64,000 nucleotides of DNA from Candidatus Tenderia sp. (GTDB lineage: Bacteria; Pseudomonadota; Gammaproteobacteria; Tenderiales; Tenderiaceae). This document shows positions 30,445 through 44,711 of this stretch, in pieces. Where the stretch lies: assembly GCA_031416075.1 (NCBI GenBank), contig JANOSY010000088.1:9504-73503 (forward strand), given 5' to 3'. The stretch's first letter is position 1. Each line of letters begins with the position of its first letter. The notes under the pieces were generated by a model. That model did not search any database and had not been told where the DNA came from. It saw only the letters and a list, made by a program, of their open reading frames with translations. Made by a program: the position numbers and the translations under genes.

Positions 30445-31009
30445 CGTCTCATCCCGCAGTTAAAAGAGCGAAATTATACGTCGCCAATGCCCTTTTGGTA
30501 AAGAGTGGGGCCCTGACCTTCGTGCCTACCCATGTTTACCCCCTAAAAAGCCACTCAGTCACCACTACCGCAAGAACAAATAGTCACATTGTGACAATTT
30601 TTGGCGCTCGCAATAAAAATACAACTGGTTGATTTTATTTATTTTTATAAAACAGTGGCAGCTATCTCAAAAAAACAAAACAAATGTGACACTTCATGAC
30701 ACCTTTGTGGCTCTTTTCAACATCAAACACCTTTAATTCACTGAAGATCAATCAGTTATCTAACGCATTAACATTAAAAAAAATTAATAATCTTATCCCG
30801 CCTCAAAGCAAAGCTGCAGCCGATACAAAAAACCGTCCTATCTCATTGATTTTATATTTATTTACAACAAAAACCACAAAATGGCTCATATATTGCTTTA
30901 TATAGATTGAGTAAAAACAGTCGGAACAGCACCCATGTCATCCCCAGCAGTAGAACGCCAGAAACAGATATCCATGACACAGGAAAAACAACCTCAAGGA
31001 GCACTACAC
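30445..31009. promoter_or_regulatory. 565-bp AT-rich divergent control region (guaBA promoter on minus; DUF11 cluster promoter on plus)
   Basis: No ORFs. A+T-rich tracts (ttgattttatttatttttataaaa…) in an otherwise ~58% GC segment are typical of UP-element/FIS-rich gua promoters. Confidence 0.5.
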
Positions 31010-31492
31010 ATGAAGATAGGCAATCTCATCACCCTACTACTGCTGGCACTGTCAGGCATCGGAGCAGCATTGGCCGACGGCGGCATTGAACTCACCATGG
31101 TCGCTCAGGAGCAGATCATCAGCCAGGATGCCAATGGCAAACAGGTAATCACCCTAACCAACCCCGCCTCTGTTGTGCCCGGCGACACCATTGTCTACAC
31201 CACCCACTACCGCAACAAGGGCAAAGTAATTGCGGAAAACGTGGTGATCACCAATCCCATCCCCAGCGACACCGCCTATATCACCCACAGCGCTTCCCAG
31301 GCAAATGCCAGCGTCAGTTACTCCGTGGATGGTGGCAAGCAGTTTGATACTCCGGCCAACCTGACCATCACCGGCAGCGACGGCAAACCACGCCCCGCCA
31401 CCGCCAATGACTACAGCCATATTCGCTGGACCCTGAAAAGCATCGCGCCCGACGCCAGTGGCAGTGTCAATTTTCACGCCCTGGTGCGCTAA
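31010..31492 (+). CDS. small secreted DUF11-repeat protein (160 aa)
   Basis: The ATG at 31010 has an AAGGAG SD and encodes signal peptide MKIGNLITLLLLALSGIGAALA. The DUF11-type motif is PGDTIVYTTHYRNKGKVIAENVVITNPIP. The track ORF starts upstream at 30935. Confidence 0.75.
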   Translation: MKIGNLITLLLLALSGIGAALADGGIELTMVAQEQIISQDANGKQVITLTNPASVVPGDTIVYTTHYRNKGKVIAENVVITNPIPSDTAYITHSASQANASVSYSVDGGKQFDTPANLTITGSDGKPRPATANDYSHIRWTLKSIAPDASGSVNFHALVR

Positions 31493-42000: not shown

Positions 42001-44711
42001 GCACTGAAGTCACCCAGGTAAACAGTGGCATAGAAACCAATAACTACATCCTTAACCTCTCCGGCCAGTCTGGCACCATCCCCACCGGGGCAAAACTTGG
42101 GTTTCGTACCCGTGGTATCTCTGTCAGCCCCAGCTTCAGGATCTATGTGGGTAATCTGGATGGCAGGACACCCAGCAACCTCTCCGGTCATCTAATCGTC
42201 AACGAGGCCGTGGGCAGCAGCGATACCACCGCCCCGGCCAGTGTCACGCTCTCTACCGGTACCATCACCAACAACTCCGTGCTGCTGAACTGGGTATCAC
42301 CGGGGGATGATGGCAATACCGGCACCGCCCAGATCTACGACATCCGTTACTCCACCGCCGCCATCACGGCGGGCAACTGGGCCAGCGCCACCCAGGTAGG
42401 CGGGGAACCAACACCTCTGGTGGCGGGCACTGCCCAGACCTATACCGTGACCGGGCTGGCCCCCAATACCCTCTACTACTTTGCCATCAAAACCGGCGAC
42501 GAGACACCCAACTGGTCAGCGGTCTCCAACTCCCCCAGCGCCACCACCTACGATCCACCGGTGGGTGGCTTTAGTGTCGATAATGTGATCCCCGCCACCC
42601 AGATCAGCCAGTCCACCAACGGTTCAGGCATCATCACCATCAACTGGAAGGGGCGCGACAATCAGGCCAATAACGTCACACTCAAAACCTTTCAGTACAG
42701 CGTGGACGGTGGGGCTAGCTGGAACGCCCCCACCAACGGCGACGCCTCCGCCGCACTCTCCGCCACCTGGAGCAACAACGGCGGCAGTGGCTGGACCACC
42801 GCCACCACCTTGGCTGCCGCTCCTGTCAACAGCTTCACCTTCAATACCAAACATGCCAATGTCTCGGGGTTAAACGGGGTGGACCAGAACGATGTACGGG
42901 TCCGGTTTCTATTACGTGATGCCACTATGGATAGCCAGAGCTATGTCACCTCGACCGATTTTCGTATCGATGCCCTTGCCCCTACCGCGACCATTGGCAG
43001 CGCCATTTACGATGCTGCCAACGACCTGCTGACCATCACCGGCACCAACTTCACCACCATTGCGGCGGCCAGCACCGACATCAAAGCCTATGTCGACTGG
43101 AGCAAATTTGTCTGGGACATCAACGGCGACAACGCCACCACCACCGACATCAGCTTTGTGCTGGGTGACATCACCAGCCTGATCATCACCGACGATACCA
43201 CCATCACCCTGCAGTTCAGTGCCGCCAAAGGGATCGCCATCGAAGCCACCGCCGGCTACAGCACCACAGGCGGGGTCGACACCCTCGATGTTGCCGCCGG
43301 TTTTGCCCGAGACGACTACGGCAATGCCGCCACCACCGATGCGGTGGCCAACGGGCCACTCGTTACCACCTCGGTCTCAGGGATACTCTACGATACCGAC
43401 CGCACCACCAGCCTCGGTTTTGGCATGACGGTACGGCTACTCATCAACGGCGCCAGCATGGGCTCCACCACCACCGACGGCAGTGGTCGCTATACCTTCT
43501 GGAATAACGTCAGTGCCGGCAATGCCATTCTGGTCTACATCGACAATGGTGCCAGCACCGCCATCAGCGCCACCGTTACCGCCAACGCCAGCCTCTCGGA
43601 CTTTGATCTCTACGCCAGCCATCTGGTGGCCCGCCACGATAATGGGGGCGCACTCAGCAACGCCAACCTGGGAAGTGCCAAGGGGGCGTATGTCGACACC
43701 GATATTGTTTACTCCGTCACCGGCAGCGCGTTAACCGTCAGTGGCAGCGCCACCCGGCTACACATCCCGGCGGGCAAAAGTTTTACCCCGGAGGGCAACG
43801 TCACCACCCCGGCCATGAGTAATCTTGGCACCTTTGTCGGCGGCAGTGGTGCCATTACCATCAATGGCAACCTGAGTAACAGCGGCAGTTATACCGCCAG
43901 CAGCGCCACCACCACTGTTGCTGCTGACTTCAGCAACAGCGGTACCTTTACAGCCGCAGGCGGTACCGTGCTGCTTAACGGTATCAATCAAAACATCACG
44001 GGGACCACTACCTTCTTCAACCTGACCAAAACCGTGGCCACCGCCGACACCCTATTTTTCAGCGTCGGCTCCACCACCACCGTCACGGGTAGCGCCACCC
44101 TGCAGGGGGCATCGGGCCAGCCACTGAGTCTGCTCTCGATCACCCCCGGCAGCCGCTGGAACTTCAACATCGGCAGCAGCGCCACTAAGTCCTTCAGTTT
44201 TCTGAATGTGATCGACAGTGACGCCTCAGGCTCTGCCGCTGCCAAAAAACCGCTCATCGCCCAACCCAGCAACTCTACCGACAGCGGCAACAATGTGGAC
44301 TGGTTTGGCCTGCCCTCCATCTCGGTGATCAAATCCAGTACCCTGATATCCGACCCCGTTAACGGCACCACCAGCCCGCTGCATATCCCGGGGGCAATCC
44401 TTAACTATCAGATCCTCACCACCAACTCTGGCAACGGCTCACCCGATACCAATACCGTGGTGGTAACCGATGCACTGGACTCCAGCAAGCTTGAGTTTGA
44501 TGTCACCACCGGCATCACCTTTACCGCCAATACCTCGGGACTGACACTGGGCACAGTGAGTTATGCCCATACCGCCACCCCCACCACCTATACCTACACC
44601 CCCACCGGCCCCTACGACGCCAATGTGGCGGGCATCAAGATCACCACCAGCGGTACGTTTGCCAGCGCCGGTGCCAGCTTTACCCTCAACTTCCGCGTCC
44701 GCATAAAATAG
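39093..44711 (+). CDS. giant (1872 aa) secreted protein with parallel beta-helix repeats, two fibronectin-III-like modules, a carboxypeptidase-regulatory-like domain and a C-terminal DUF11 domain
   Basis: Signal peptide (…IQLCLLATLLLVVLLPRPGVAA). Repeated GNYIGTNxxGT…NVIAGNG (PbH1-like) units. Twice …ITLNWTSPGDDNNSGTATSYDLRYS…TTYYF… (FN3-like). C-terminal SPLHIPGAILNYQILTTNSGNGSPDTNTVVVTDALDSS. Confidence 0.8.
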   Translation: MDSTMRYGRFIQLCLLATLLLVVLLPRPGVAAITATTLFEGSTDGDASAYTGPSLSPSANNLILVWITNTRSSSPTVPTFTGNGLTWVQVATVTWGSSGSPTARTTLFRAMGSSPATGINSIDFAGNTQTGVAMSMIQFNNVDITGSNGANALVQSVTGRTDSASSTAGLSLTLAALGNVANASVGGFSNFINSATSISPGSGYTASSGTTYLAPSISLRAEWKSAGSTIVNVTQSGTSHIGGIAVELKADLCAGNVVTTIANSGDGSLRECIIKANLNPGTTITFNITAAANQSSGANSWWRITPTTALPTITAANTVIDATTQTSNRGNTNTLGPEVELNGATVGAGGWDGFGVASPATGVIIRGFIINQWSGSGISLWSGSGTIRGNYIGTNYAGTSALANTSYGLYLNTNGNTVGGTSAADRNVIAGNGGPGIYIVSNSNTVQGNYIGVNASAGAIVANSGHGVQILSGATGNTIGGTAAGAGNVIAGNGADGINHSSTGSNTVQGNYIGTNASSATLSNGGNGIAISAGTLNVGNASESQSNIIGPNSGAGINLAGGTVNLAGSVTVRGNMALASGTLAMGSATLNLSGNWSRTSTTVTTGTSTVVLNGTALQSLTMNGSNFNNLTITNGSVAGISFNDGFNAANITNTTPASRLTFKAGATYTLSGTLTLVGSSGNQIILLSDSPGTRFTLNPTAGAQSVNYVNVKDSQASTNNITADNSTNSGGNDDAEAAPRWVFNAPDTTPPARIIDLTVTSSTTSSITLNWTSPGDDNNSGTATSYDLRYSTSPITAGNWASATQAVGEPTPLVAGSSQSFSVTGLAAATTYYFVMTTSDEVPNTSALSDSAVGTTGGGGGGNVSYYAKRSNSVSIASGITSNSGSCGTDPTAYYIEELSKNISDMCVTANAYRWEQLTAGSYSDHYFNTAYVANTTVTGVSYQVTIRDSGTVGFQLFYVTSGGTKTYLGTEVTQVNSGIETNNYILNLSGQSGTIPTGAKLGFRTRGISVSPSFRIYVGNLDGRTPSNLSGHLIVNEAVGSSDTTAPASVTLSTGTITNNSVLLNWVSPGDDGNTGTAQIYDIRYSTAAITAGNWASATQVGGEPTPLVAGTAQTYTVTGLAPNTLYYFAIKTGDETPNWSAVSNSPSATTYDPPVGGFSVDNVIPATQISQSTNGSGIITINWKGRDNQANNVTLKTFQYSVDGGASWNAPTNGDASAALSATWSNNGGSGWTTATTLAAAPVNSFTFNTKHANVSGLNGVDQNDVRVRFLLRDATMDSQSYVTSTDFRIDALAPTATIGSAIYDAANDLLTITGTNFTTIAAASTDIKAYVDWSKFVWDINGDNATTTDISFVLGDITSLIITDDTTITLQFSAAKGIAIEATAGYSTTGGVDTLDVAAGFARDDYGNAATTDAVANGPLVTTSVSGILYDTDRTTSLGFGMTVRLLINGASMGSTTTDGSGRYTFWNNVSAGNAILVYIDNGASTAISATVTANASLSDFDLYASHLVARHDNGGALSNANLGSAKGAYVDTDIVYSVTGSALTVSGSATRLHIPAGKSFTPEGNVTTPAMSNLGTFVGGSGAITINGNLSNSGSYTASSATTTVAADFSNSGTFTAAGGTVLLNGINQNITGTTTFFNLTKTVATADTLFFSVGSTTTVTGSATLQGASGQPLSLLSITPGSRWNFNIGSSATKSFSFLNVIDSDASGSAAAKKPLIAQPSNSTDSGNNVDWFGLPSISVIKSSTLISDPVNGTTSPLHIPGAILNYQILTTNSGNGSPDTNTVVVTDALDSSKLEFDVTTGITFTANTSGLTLGTVSYAHTATPTTYTYTPTGPYDANVAGIKITTSGTFASAGASFTLNFRVRIK

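Follow-up and report, generated by a model that had tools for sequence, protein, structure and literature searches.

A cluster of four co-directional genes (here g1 to g4) lies between guaB and xseA in a 64,000 nt stretch of DNA from Candidatus Tenderia sp. (contig JANOSY010000088.1; hereafter the window), and encodes proteins of 160, 353, 2098 and 1872 aa. It is classified here as a putative donor-strand surface fibre system assembled at an outer-membrane barrel, which would represent a new class if the covalent split-domain chemistry and the one-protein translocon-anchor are confirmed. The chances are about even that the cluster by itself equips a diderm bacterium to build a fibre on the cell surface, either a pilus or a fibrillar adhesin. 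More broadly, g3 probably serves an adhesive system of the cell surface as its export and anchor protein in the outer membrane. The most specific form of this proposal is a widespread, undescribed class of diderm pilus with a naturally split CLIPPER domain, a Lys-Asn lock, no sortase or chaperone, and a single barrel of ~36 strands fused to a peptidoglycan-binding domain; it is put forward tentatively and is somewhat doubtful.

The cluster belongs to a conserved gene module. With g2 as the probe, 239 genomic stretches were found to encode relatives and 79 loci were retrieved. Among these, g1, g2 and g3 are nearly always adjacent and in the same order, at 31–60% identity, the trio being syntenic in 79 species of several phyla. 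The module comes with no ATPase, chaperone, sortase or known secretion component.

Modules of the four proteins

Each of the four proteins begins with a hydrophobic, signal-peptide-like segment ending in A-x-A (translations read by eye). This agrees with the initial annotation of the sequence, which had described all four as secreted, and supports their assignment as Sec-type envelope or surface proteins with CLIPPER/DUF11-type domains. DUF11 is now named CLIPPER in Pfam (PF01345; cut-off 24.6 bits). The g1 protein consists of a signal peptide and a single CLIPPER-like domain (35.2 bits), g3 carries one canonical, complete CLIPPER domain (Table 1), and g2 was recognised by TIGR01451 (27.0 bits, cut-off 24), no other DUF11 model passing. 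No DUF11 model matched g4, which is tied to the family solely through its C-terminal ~130 aa; these are 33% identical to the second domain of g2 (dom2), match it also by hidden Markov model (HMM), and keep its K, DP, IPGA, N and TD. The DUF11 motif that the annotation had read in all four proteins was thus recovered by model in g1, g2 and g3, and the term 'DUF11-repeat proteins' had to be dropped, as each protein has one or two CLIPPER-type domains and no repeat arrays. OmpA, CarboxypepD_reg and fn3, which had also been suspected, were recovered by Pfam, and Beta_helix gave no match.

The dom2 of g2 resembles a CLIPPER domain that has lost its last part. It aligns only to positions 7–104 of 153 in the profile of the complete CLIPPER domain of g3, and the part of the profile left uncovered bears two conserved Asn motifs, A.N.A and SN.A. 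In g2, g1 and g4-like proteins, dom2 stops 0–1 residues short of the protein C-terminus. The solved CLIPPER domain has an isopeptide bond between a first-strand Lys and a late-strand Asn, with an Asp as catalyst (K715, N806 and D748 in PDB entry 9IFR), and some DUF11 domains are without this bond according to the same CLIPPER survey (PMC12617251). The Lys is kept by dom2 in 85/86 g2 and 27/27 g4-like proteins, and the Asp in 88/90 and 36/38, respectively. The late Asn strand is missing from the dom2 of both groups, the conserved Asn sitting instead in a short motif at the mature N-terminus (Nte); the intramolecular Lys-Asn isopeptide arrangement of CLIPPER domains was not found in dom2, which ends before the Asn-bearing strands. 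The alignment of g1 with dom2 of g2 (hhalign probability 97%, E=1.3e-10) begins at the PG motif, which reads IPGA in g2, and reaches the C-terminus. The g1 protein is without the Lys-bearing strand: the equivalent of D279 is Asn in 23 of 34 members, and the K234 region is unaligned in 30 of the 34. HMMs made from the segments of g2 gave the architecture Nte-dom1-dom2 for g2 and its paralogue, dom2 alone for g1, and a variable N-terminal part followed by one or two dom2 for g4-like proteins.

The Nte directly follows the signal peptide in both g2 (TASGTNISNSATVNY) and g3 (VPPGTIISNVASINY), and has a near-invariant Asn in an I-x-N-x-A-x-V context, then a second SN. The motif was found in 80 of 118 g2-like and 51 of 77 g3 proteins, crude ORF (open reading frame) starts explaining most of the misses, and in none of 51 g1 or 15 g4-like proteins. 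The two Nte sequences align with a probability of 92% (hhalign, E=6.5e-7; 39% identity over 36 columns). Because their homology ends after these 36 residues, the Nte is considered a discrete module and not a part of dom1.

An AlphaFold2 monomer of g2 (mean predicted local distance difference test, pLDDT, 90.7) shows two Ig-like domains, each similar to domains found in sortase-assembled pilins and to the crystal structure of a CLIPPER domain (9IFR), so that g2 has the CnaA/CnaB-type Ig-like pilin domains of sortase pili. Comparison with the PDB by Foldseek returned tandem-Ig proteins only, at a TM-score <0.33, and nothing that matched g2 over its whole length. Sequence searches of the PDB with the g2 profile, and with a profile of a dom2+Nte chimera, gave no meaningful match, and those with g1 and g4 gave nothing useful.

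The g4 protein has a signal peptide, an N-terminal region, repeats, two fn3 domains and a C-terminal dom2, and has no Nte. Most loci also carry a variable protein of 600–1600 aa, up- or downstream of the module, that is like g4 in its C-terminal domain only and likewise ends in dom2. The suggestion of structural subunits is supported for the two small proteins, and that of an adhesin for g4.

The giant g3 combines an Nte, a CarboxypepD_reg domain lying among Ig-like domains, the complete CLIPPER domain, an SdrD_B-like domain, an OmpA-like peptidoglycan-binding domain, further Ig-like domains and a very long C-terminal module (Table 1). The OmpA-like domain matches TssL, OprF, PomB and YfiB in the PDB and contains the conserved motifs GHSD...LS..RA...NRRVE, so that model match and motifs both place it in this family. 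The C-terminal 1059 aa have no family in Pfam, and are the best-conserved part of the protein. A word-indexed search gave 1205 matches, and an exhaustive search of representatives (clusters at 50% identity) gave 3506 of them at a limit of E<=1e-3 and 1363 at one of E<=1e-30; most are proteins of 1800–2400 aa. An AlphaFold2 model of this region (53 sequences; pLDDT 79, predicted template modelling score 0.70) shows Ig-like domains and, beyond them, a long series of antiparallel strands: 30 of at least 9 residues (mean 13.5) after residue 471 of the fragment, and about six before it. The strand ends show an enrichment of aromatic residues, and an alternating hydrophobic motif (...LFLRFRMKF) lies near the C-terminus. 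The last ~830 aa therefore model as an outer-membrane beta-barrel of ~30–36 strands. The initial annotation had stated that no dedicated secretion or assembly genes are present; because the g3 C-terminus models as a giant outer-membrane barrel, and in a protein that also has an OmpA domain, this statement is probably wrong.

At two loci (L068:11126-17217 and L081:11524-17337), separate ORFs encode the N-terminal part of the g3 homologue and its barrel, and many database matches of ~1000–1130 aa consist of the barrel module alone. Such cases may be natural two-gene versions or assembly frameshifts.

A donor-strand model and its alternatives

From the gene content, domain composition, synteny, conservation patterns, fold predictions and insertion site of the cluster, we infer a surface location, polymerisation, a covalent bond between subunits, and roles for g1 and g4. 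All four proteins would cross the inner membrane by Sec. The g3 barrel would insert in the outer membrane, with the OmpA-like domain fixing the protein to peptidoglycan, and would be both the export pore and the base of the fibre. The repeating shaft subunit would be g2, able to accept as well as to donate a strand: its dom2 appears to be without the last, Asn-bearing strands, and a similar motif (..GT.I.N.A.V.Y....SN..) is seen in its Nte. The Nte of an incoming subunit would complete the dom2 of the preceding one (donor-strand complementation), and this insertion in trans would restore the connectivity of tandem CLIPPER domains, where each Asn strand continues directly into the domain that follows. 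Lys234 and Asp279 (dom2) would thereby come into position with Asn39 (Nte) for an autocatalytic intermolecular isopeptide bond, as in SpyTag/SpyCatcher. Since a terminal dom2 without an Nte can only accept a strand, g4 would be the adhesin at the distal tip. The g3 protein is placed at the base because it carries an Nte, which would donate the last strand and tie the fibre to the pore. With a dom2-like domain and no Lys, Asp or Nte, g1 would bind the Nte reversibly, as a periplasmic chaperone or a non-covalent cap. The distribution of the two modules (both in g2, Nte in g3, dom2 in g1 and g4) fits a head-to-tail donor-strand polymer.

Several observations weigh against this model. The Nte alone matches the canonical last CLIPPER strand weakly (E=0.083). 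By hhalign, the dom2+Nte chimera scored 51.1 and column-shuffled controls 43–59, with 2–3 of the 25 listed shuffles reaching the chimera, a difference without significance, and Pfam scores changed in no consistent way between dom2, dom2+Nte, dom2 with shuffled Nte, and the dom2 of g4 with the Nte added. The AlphaFold2 monomer of g2 places the Nte with high confidence, and it may simply pack in cis. The strands of the g3 barrel are rather polar (+0.45 for the hydrophobic face, Kyte-Doolittle scale), in a model of pLDDT 79. As the g3 chain runs from its N-terminal ~870 aa through the OmpA domain to the barrel, a surface-exposed g3 N-terminus would have to thread its own pore. The window cluster is without the second g2 paralogue found at most other loci, and no Rfam riboswitch was found in the window.

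Three other readings account for parts of the same evidence. Secretion without polymerisation, in which g3 is a single-protein translocon with a SprA-like barrel and PorE-like CarboxypepD_reg/OmpA modules, would make dom2 a C-terminal export signal like the C-terminal domain (CTD) of type IX secretion system (T9SS) cargo, and g1, g2 and g4 separate surface or secreted proteins. The position of dom2 at the extreme C-terminus of g1, g2 and g4-like proteins is as expected for such a signal, T9SS cargo having a C-terminal Ig-like domain. The barrel of g3 aligns over 501 residues with SprA, itself a very large barrel of 36 strands, CarboxypepD_reg and OmpA domains are present as in PorE, and the g4-like cargo is highly variable between loci. 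The resemblance to SprA is nevertheless one of generic fold only, and the hosts are Proteobacteria and related phyla, not Bacteroidota. No CTD model (TIGR04183/TIGR04131) matched, the PDB search gave no sequence match to SprA, and no Por genes occur in the 79 loci. Secretion of this kind is considered unlikely.

It is still more improbable that the cluster forms an envelope scaffold, that is, a tether or lattice between outer membrane and peptidoglycan in the periplasm or on the inner face of that membrane, with g3 as an oversized OmpA-type anchor and g2 as a periplasmic Ig polymer comparable to the DUF11-rich OmcB layer of chlamydiae. An OmpA domain must be periplasmic, and in g3 it has Ig-like domains on both sides; a periplasmic location has been described for DUF11 proteins such as OmcB (OmcB-like proteins being mentioned in PMC10787695), and the cluster encodes no separate secretion system. 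A tether, however, needs no pore of ~30–36 strands, and g4 is adhesin-like (fn3 domains, and ~60 aa repeats of the parallel beta-helix kind) and varies between loci as tip adhesins do. Cyclic-dinucleotide riboswitches at the module in Desulfuromonadales (below) also fit a role in surface attachment. Finally, the four could be independent secreted DUF11 proteins, exported by unlinked type I or type II secretion systems or by Bam and coupled through co-expression only, given that none of them matches a known secretion-system family in Pfam or NCBIfam. The strict g1-g2-g3 synteny across phyla at such low identity, the Nte and dom2 modules common to the proteins, and the predicted giant barrel of g3 leave this very little likelihood.

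Distribution, control regions and insertion site

Hosts of the module are found in the Gammaproteobacteria (Chromatiales, Steroidobacteraceae, Woeseiaceae, Rhodanobacter), in Geobacter and Desulfuromonas, and in the Myxococcota, Bdellovibrionota, Nitrospirota and Spirochaetales. Most loci have a second g2 paralogue upstream of g1. Recurrent neighbouring families (F3–F11) were considered as extra components and rejected, as they proved to be dinG, tsaB, phoB, pckG and similar genes, which reflect lineage synteny only. Literature searches found no description of this gene module.

In Desulfuromonas sp. TF, the module has sigma-54 activator genes on its flanks and, immediately upstream, two tandem c-di-GMP-I-GGC aptamers (RF03167; 70 and 67 bits against a gathering score of 59). 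The module of Geobacter sp. UBA9964 starts with a g4-like gene, whose leader contains a c-di-GMP-I aptamer (RF01051). One further aptamer precedes a sigma-54 activator gene. No Rfam riboswitch was found in 15 other loci. In Geobacter, such riboswitches have been reported upstream of genes for cytochromes, pilus assembly and polysaccharides, and growth attached to Fe(III) particles is under the control of cyclic GMP-AMP (cGAMP) signalling (PMC6456294). The riboswitches of Desulfuromonas and Geobacter link the module to cyclic-dinucleotide control of surface attachment.

The layout given by the initial annotation (guaB, a 565 bp region of 38% GC, the four co-directional genes, xseA) was confirmed at every coordinate, and its claim that guaBA and xseA are divergent neighbours in enterobacteria was borne out in E. 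coli, where guaB and xseA are adjacent and divergent. The 80 best metagenomic XseA relatives (~40–60% identical) were surveyed where enough upstream DNA was available, and guaB directly adjoins xseA, divergently, in nine of these loci (XseA 46–60% identical); the gaps of 136–816 bp hold no cluster genes. Since the pair is adjacent without cluster genes in relatives, and the same module sits in quite different neighbourhoods in other lineages, the evidence supports the cluster being an acquired accessory insertion in an ancestrally adjacent guaB/xseA pair. No mobile-element signature was seen at the cluster borders (no notable direct or inverted flanking repeats, no tRNA, no integrase). The GC content at third codon positions (GC3) is 0.70–0.74 in the cluster, 0.63–0.69 in guaBA and xseA, and 0.45–0.57 in other housekeeping genes, which is only weak evidence of foreign origin because the window is compositionally heterogeneous.

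Two related metagenomic loci hold other cargo in the guaB-xseA gap, and neither has cluster genes. One (L087:7211-8896) has an M28-like secreted peptidase, and the other (L097:5591-8891) a TonB-dependent receptor and a PiuC-like oxygenase (identities read from the translations). Accessory envelope genes thus seem to have landed repeatedly in the space between these two genes. Immediately beyond xseA in E. coli NZ_CP048605.1 (L082:7040-9417) is a gene of ~6.4 kb for a giant 'adhesion domain-containing protein', and the CS54 adhesin island of Salmonella likewise adjoins xseA. Large adhesin genes are attracted to the xseA neighbourhood in unrelated lineages.

The nearest genome is the Gammaproteobacteria metagenome-assembled genome (MAG) ND3_Bin_17 (g1–g4 94–97% and GuaB 99% identical), followed by an uncultured Chromatiaceae MAG (g2 86%, GuaB 97%), and both carry the cluster beside guaB. 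The closest relatives of g2 outside the lineage of the host are 70–77% identical and are labelled Desulfobulbia or "Deltaproteobacteria"; g2 proteins of other Chromatiales are only 44–48% identical. The enterobacterial setting in which the initial annotation had placed the locus did not hold, the host being a Chromatiales-like gammaproteobacterium by its nearest genomes. An enterobacterial origin of the cluster was likewise rejected, megablast against 5,426 E. coli genomes having given no match and the nearest genomes being the two MAGs above.

Table 1. Coordinates of the cluster, its protein modules, the flanking genes and associated riboswitch aptamers (nucleotide positions are those of the window unless a locus is given)
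Feature	Residues (aa)	Nucleotides	Strand	Basis or remark
guaA		27333-28904	-	ORF scan; GuaA confirmed by Pfam
guaB (IMP dehydrogenase), left flank of insertion		28984-30444	-	Pfam IMPDH E=2.7e-165
Upstream region common to guaB and cluster, 565 bp		30445-31009	.	38.4% GC, AT-rich
g1, 160 aa		31010-31492	+	ATG with AAGGAG ribosome-binding site
g2, 353 aa		31710-32771	+	ORF scan
g2 signal peptide	1-29
g2 Nte	30-62			TASGTNISNSATVNY...SN
g2 dom1	~60-225
g2 dom2, apparently truncated CLIPPER ending at protein C-terminus	226-353
g3, 2098 aa		32777-39073	+	ORF scan
g3 Nte	~45-80	32909-33016	+
g3 CarboxypepD_reg, among Ig-like domains	373-458			Pfam
g3 canonical complete CLIPPER domain	510-640			26.9 bits, cut-off 24.6
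g3 OmpA-like peptidoglycan-binding domain	900-1010	35474-35806	+	PF00691 40.3 bits, cut-off 27.2, aa 900-1004
g3 Ig-like domains before barrel	~1070-1270	35984-36586	+
g3 giant beta-barrel module (predicted)	~1270-2085	36584-39031	+
g4, 1872 aa		39093-44711	+	ORF scan
g4 ~60 aa 'NTVQGNYIG' repeats	~380-520			Repeat family D4
g4 fn3 domains	756-838, 1048-1145			Pfam E=1.1e-13
g4 C-terminal dom2	~1739-1872	44307-44708	+
xseA (exonuclease VII large subunit), right flank		44800-46161	+	Pfam Exonuc_VII_L E=2.7e-120
Cyclic-dinucleotide riboswitch aptamers at the modules of Desulfuromonas sp. TF and Geobacter sp. UBA9964		L002:4163-4525 and 2305-2384; L027:3590-3668		Rfam RF03167, RF01051

The longest ORF of g1 begins at 30935, upstream of the ATG with a ribosome-binding site. 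The gaps between genes are 217 bp (g1-g2), 5 bp (g2-g3), 19 bp (g3-g4) and 88 bp (g4-xseA). The control region shared by guaB and g1 holds sigma-70-like hexamers, and GTCACA/TGTGAC half-sites in a palindrome (GTCACAttGTGAC, 30583-30595) and a nearby sequence (TGTGACACTTCATGACAC, 30685-30702), with half-sites at 30583-30595 and 30685-30690; the two may be an operator for some regulator. Both are conserved in the two nearest genomes (L003, L004), where the conserved blocks include the GTCACA...TGAC motifs and AAAATGGCT...TTGCT. An Rfam search of this leader (30445-31009) returned no family at E<=1. A short GC hairpin followed by TTTT (GCGCCTGCCGGGCGTTTT) lies at 31530-31560 in the gap after g1; it was not called by the terminator scan, and may act as a weak attenuator governing how much g2 is expressed relative to g1.

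Elsewhere the window consists of core chromosomal genes (ppiD, lon, clpXP, tig, a tRNA cluster, pnp, infB). Downstream of guaA is an ORF of 812 aa (24825-27263, minus strand), Ala/Leu-rich, without an obvious signal peptide or Pfam family, and 84% identical in the nearest MAG (L003). An M23 peptidase ORF (46088-47020, plus strand) overlaps the end of xseA by 74 nt from its listed GTG start, and the true start is probably further downstream. GC content across the window is uneven, ~0.47–0.52 over 6–16 kb and 46–64 kb and 0.54–0.61 over 16–46 kb, the higher stretch taking in guaBA, xseA and the cluster alike.

Relation to known systems and significance

In its proposed way of working, the system comes closest to the chaperone-usher pili (Fim/Pap, with the FimD/PapC usher, the FimH/PapG adhesin and donor-strand exchange). 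However, no PapD-like two-domain chaperone (PF00345/PF02753) was matched by Pfam in g1–g4, and the 79 loci have no further conserved gene; nor was there a Pfam match to the Usher family (PF00577, a 24-strand barrel with a plug). The predicted barrel here has ~30–36 strands instead of 24, is fused to an OmpA domain and many Ig-like domains, and belongs to a protein that itself bears an Nte, and the subunits are two-domain, CLIPPER/CnaA-like proteins with a Lys and an Asp suited to a covalent bond. Against type V secretion, whose translocators have 12–16 strands, the predicted g3 barrel again stands apart with ~30 or more, and Pfam and NCBIfam gave no Autotransporter, IAT_beta, ShlB/POTRA, TPS or passenger match.

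The g2 domains resemble the pilins of sortase-assembled Gram-positive pili (RrgB, SpaA, BcpA, GBS104), whereas the host here is diderm. There is no sortase gene among the four genes and their flanks and no LPXTG motif: g2 ends in ...VKIRAEIQ, and g1, g2 and g4 all end after the last dom2 strand. Instead of transpeptidation at a pilin motif, the link would be autocatalytic, by strand insertion. SpyTag/SpyCatcher embodies the concept proposed here, an Ig-like isopeptide domain without one strand in which a strand supplied in trans reacts with Lys under Asp/Glu catalysis; it is an engineered split of CnaB2 with a Lys-Asp bond, whereas here the split would be a natural one, of a CnaA-like CLIPPER domain, with a Lys-Asn bond.

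The CLIPPER adhesin B9T28_05395 of Acinetobacter silvestris (PDB 9IFR) is likewise a Gram-negative protein of ~2100 aa that combines CLIPPER domains, their fold defined by the Lys-Asp-Asn isopeptide triad, with an OmpA-like anchor (PMC12617251). It is a single polypeptide of tandem complete CLIPPER repeats with a terminal OmpA domain, and the survey that describes it covers single-polypeptide adhesins with intramolecular bonds (PMC12617251). In the present cluster, by contrast, several genes are involved, different subunits appear to hold the two parts of the domain, and the OmpA domain has an internal position ahead of the predicted giant barrel.

Ig-like subunits joined head-to-tail by an N-terminal strand are also found in chaperone-free filaments (the archaeal threads of Saci_0406, type V pili, TasA, and the Pam pili of the candidate phyla radiation, CPR). 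In archaeal threads there appears to be an intermolecular isopeptide bond as well, and a neighbouring gene encodes a putative cap (PMC9715654); new donor-strand pili have recently been reported in CPR bacteria (10.64898/2026.03.03.709456). These filaments have no sequence relationship to the proteins described here and work without an outer-membrane barrel; the bond proposed for archaeal threads is from an Asn to the N-terminal amine of subunit n+2, and type V pili need lipoprotein processing and a protease.

Should the fibre model prove wrong, the results would still be a precise description of a large conserved family, with cultured hosts in Rhodanobacter spathiphylli B39 and Desulfuromonas sp. 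TF. If it is right, the g3 barrel would be a new class of outer-membrane translocon, SprA-sized and present in at least 1363 clusters (50% identity) without a Pfam family, and a natural split CLIPPER pair could yield new protein-ligation tags. The system would be a minimal one, of three to five genes with no ATPase, chaperone or sortase, and would give Gram-negative bacteria a fifth way of making surface fibres, after chaperone-usher, type IV, curli and type V pili. Subunits that ligate themselves covalently would account for attachment under mechanical or chemical stress by the environmental Proteobacteria, Desulfuromonadales, Myxococcota, Nitrospirota and others that carry it.

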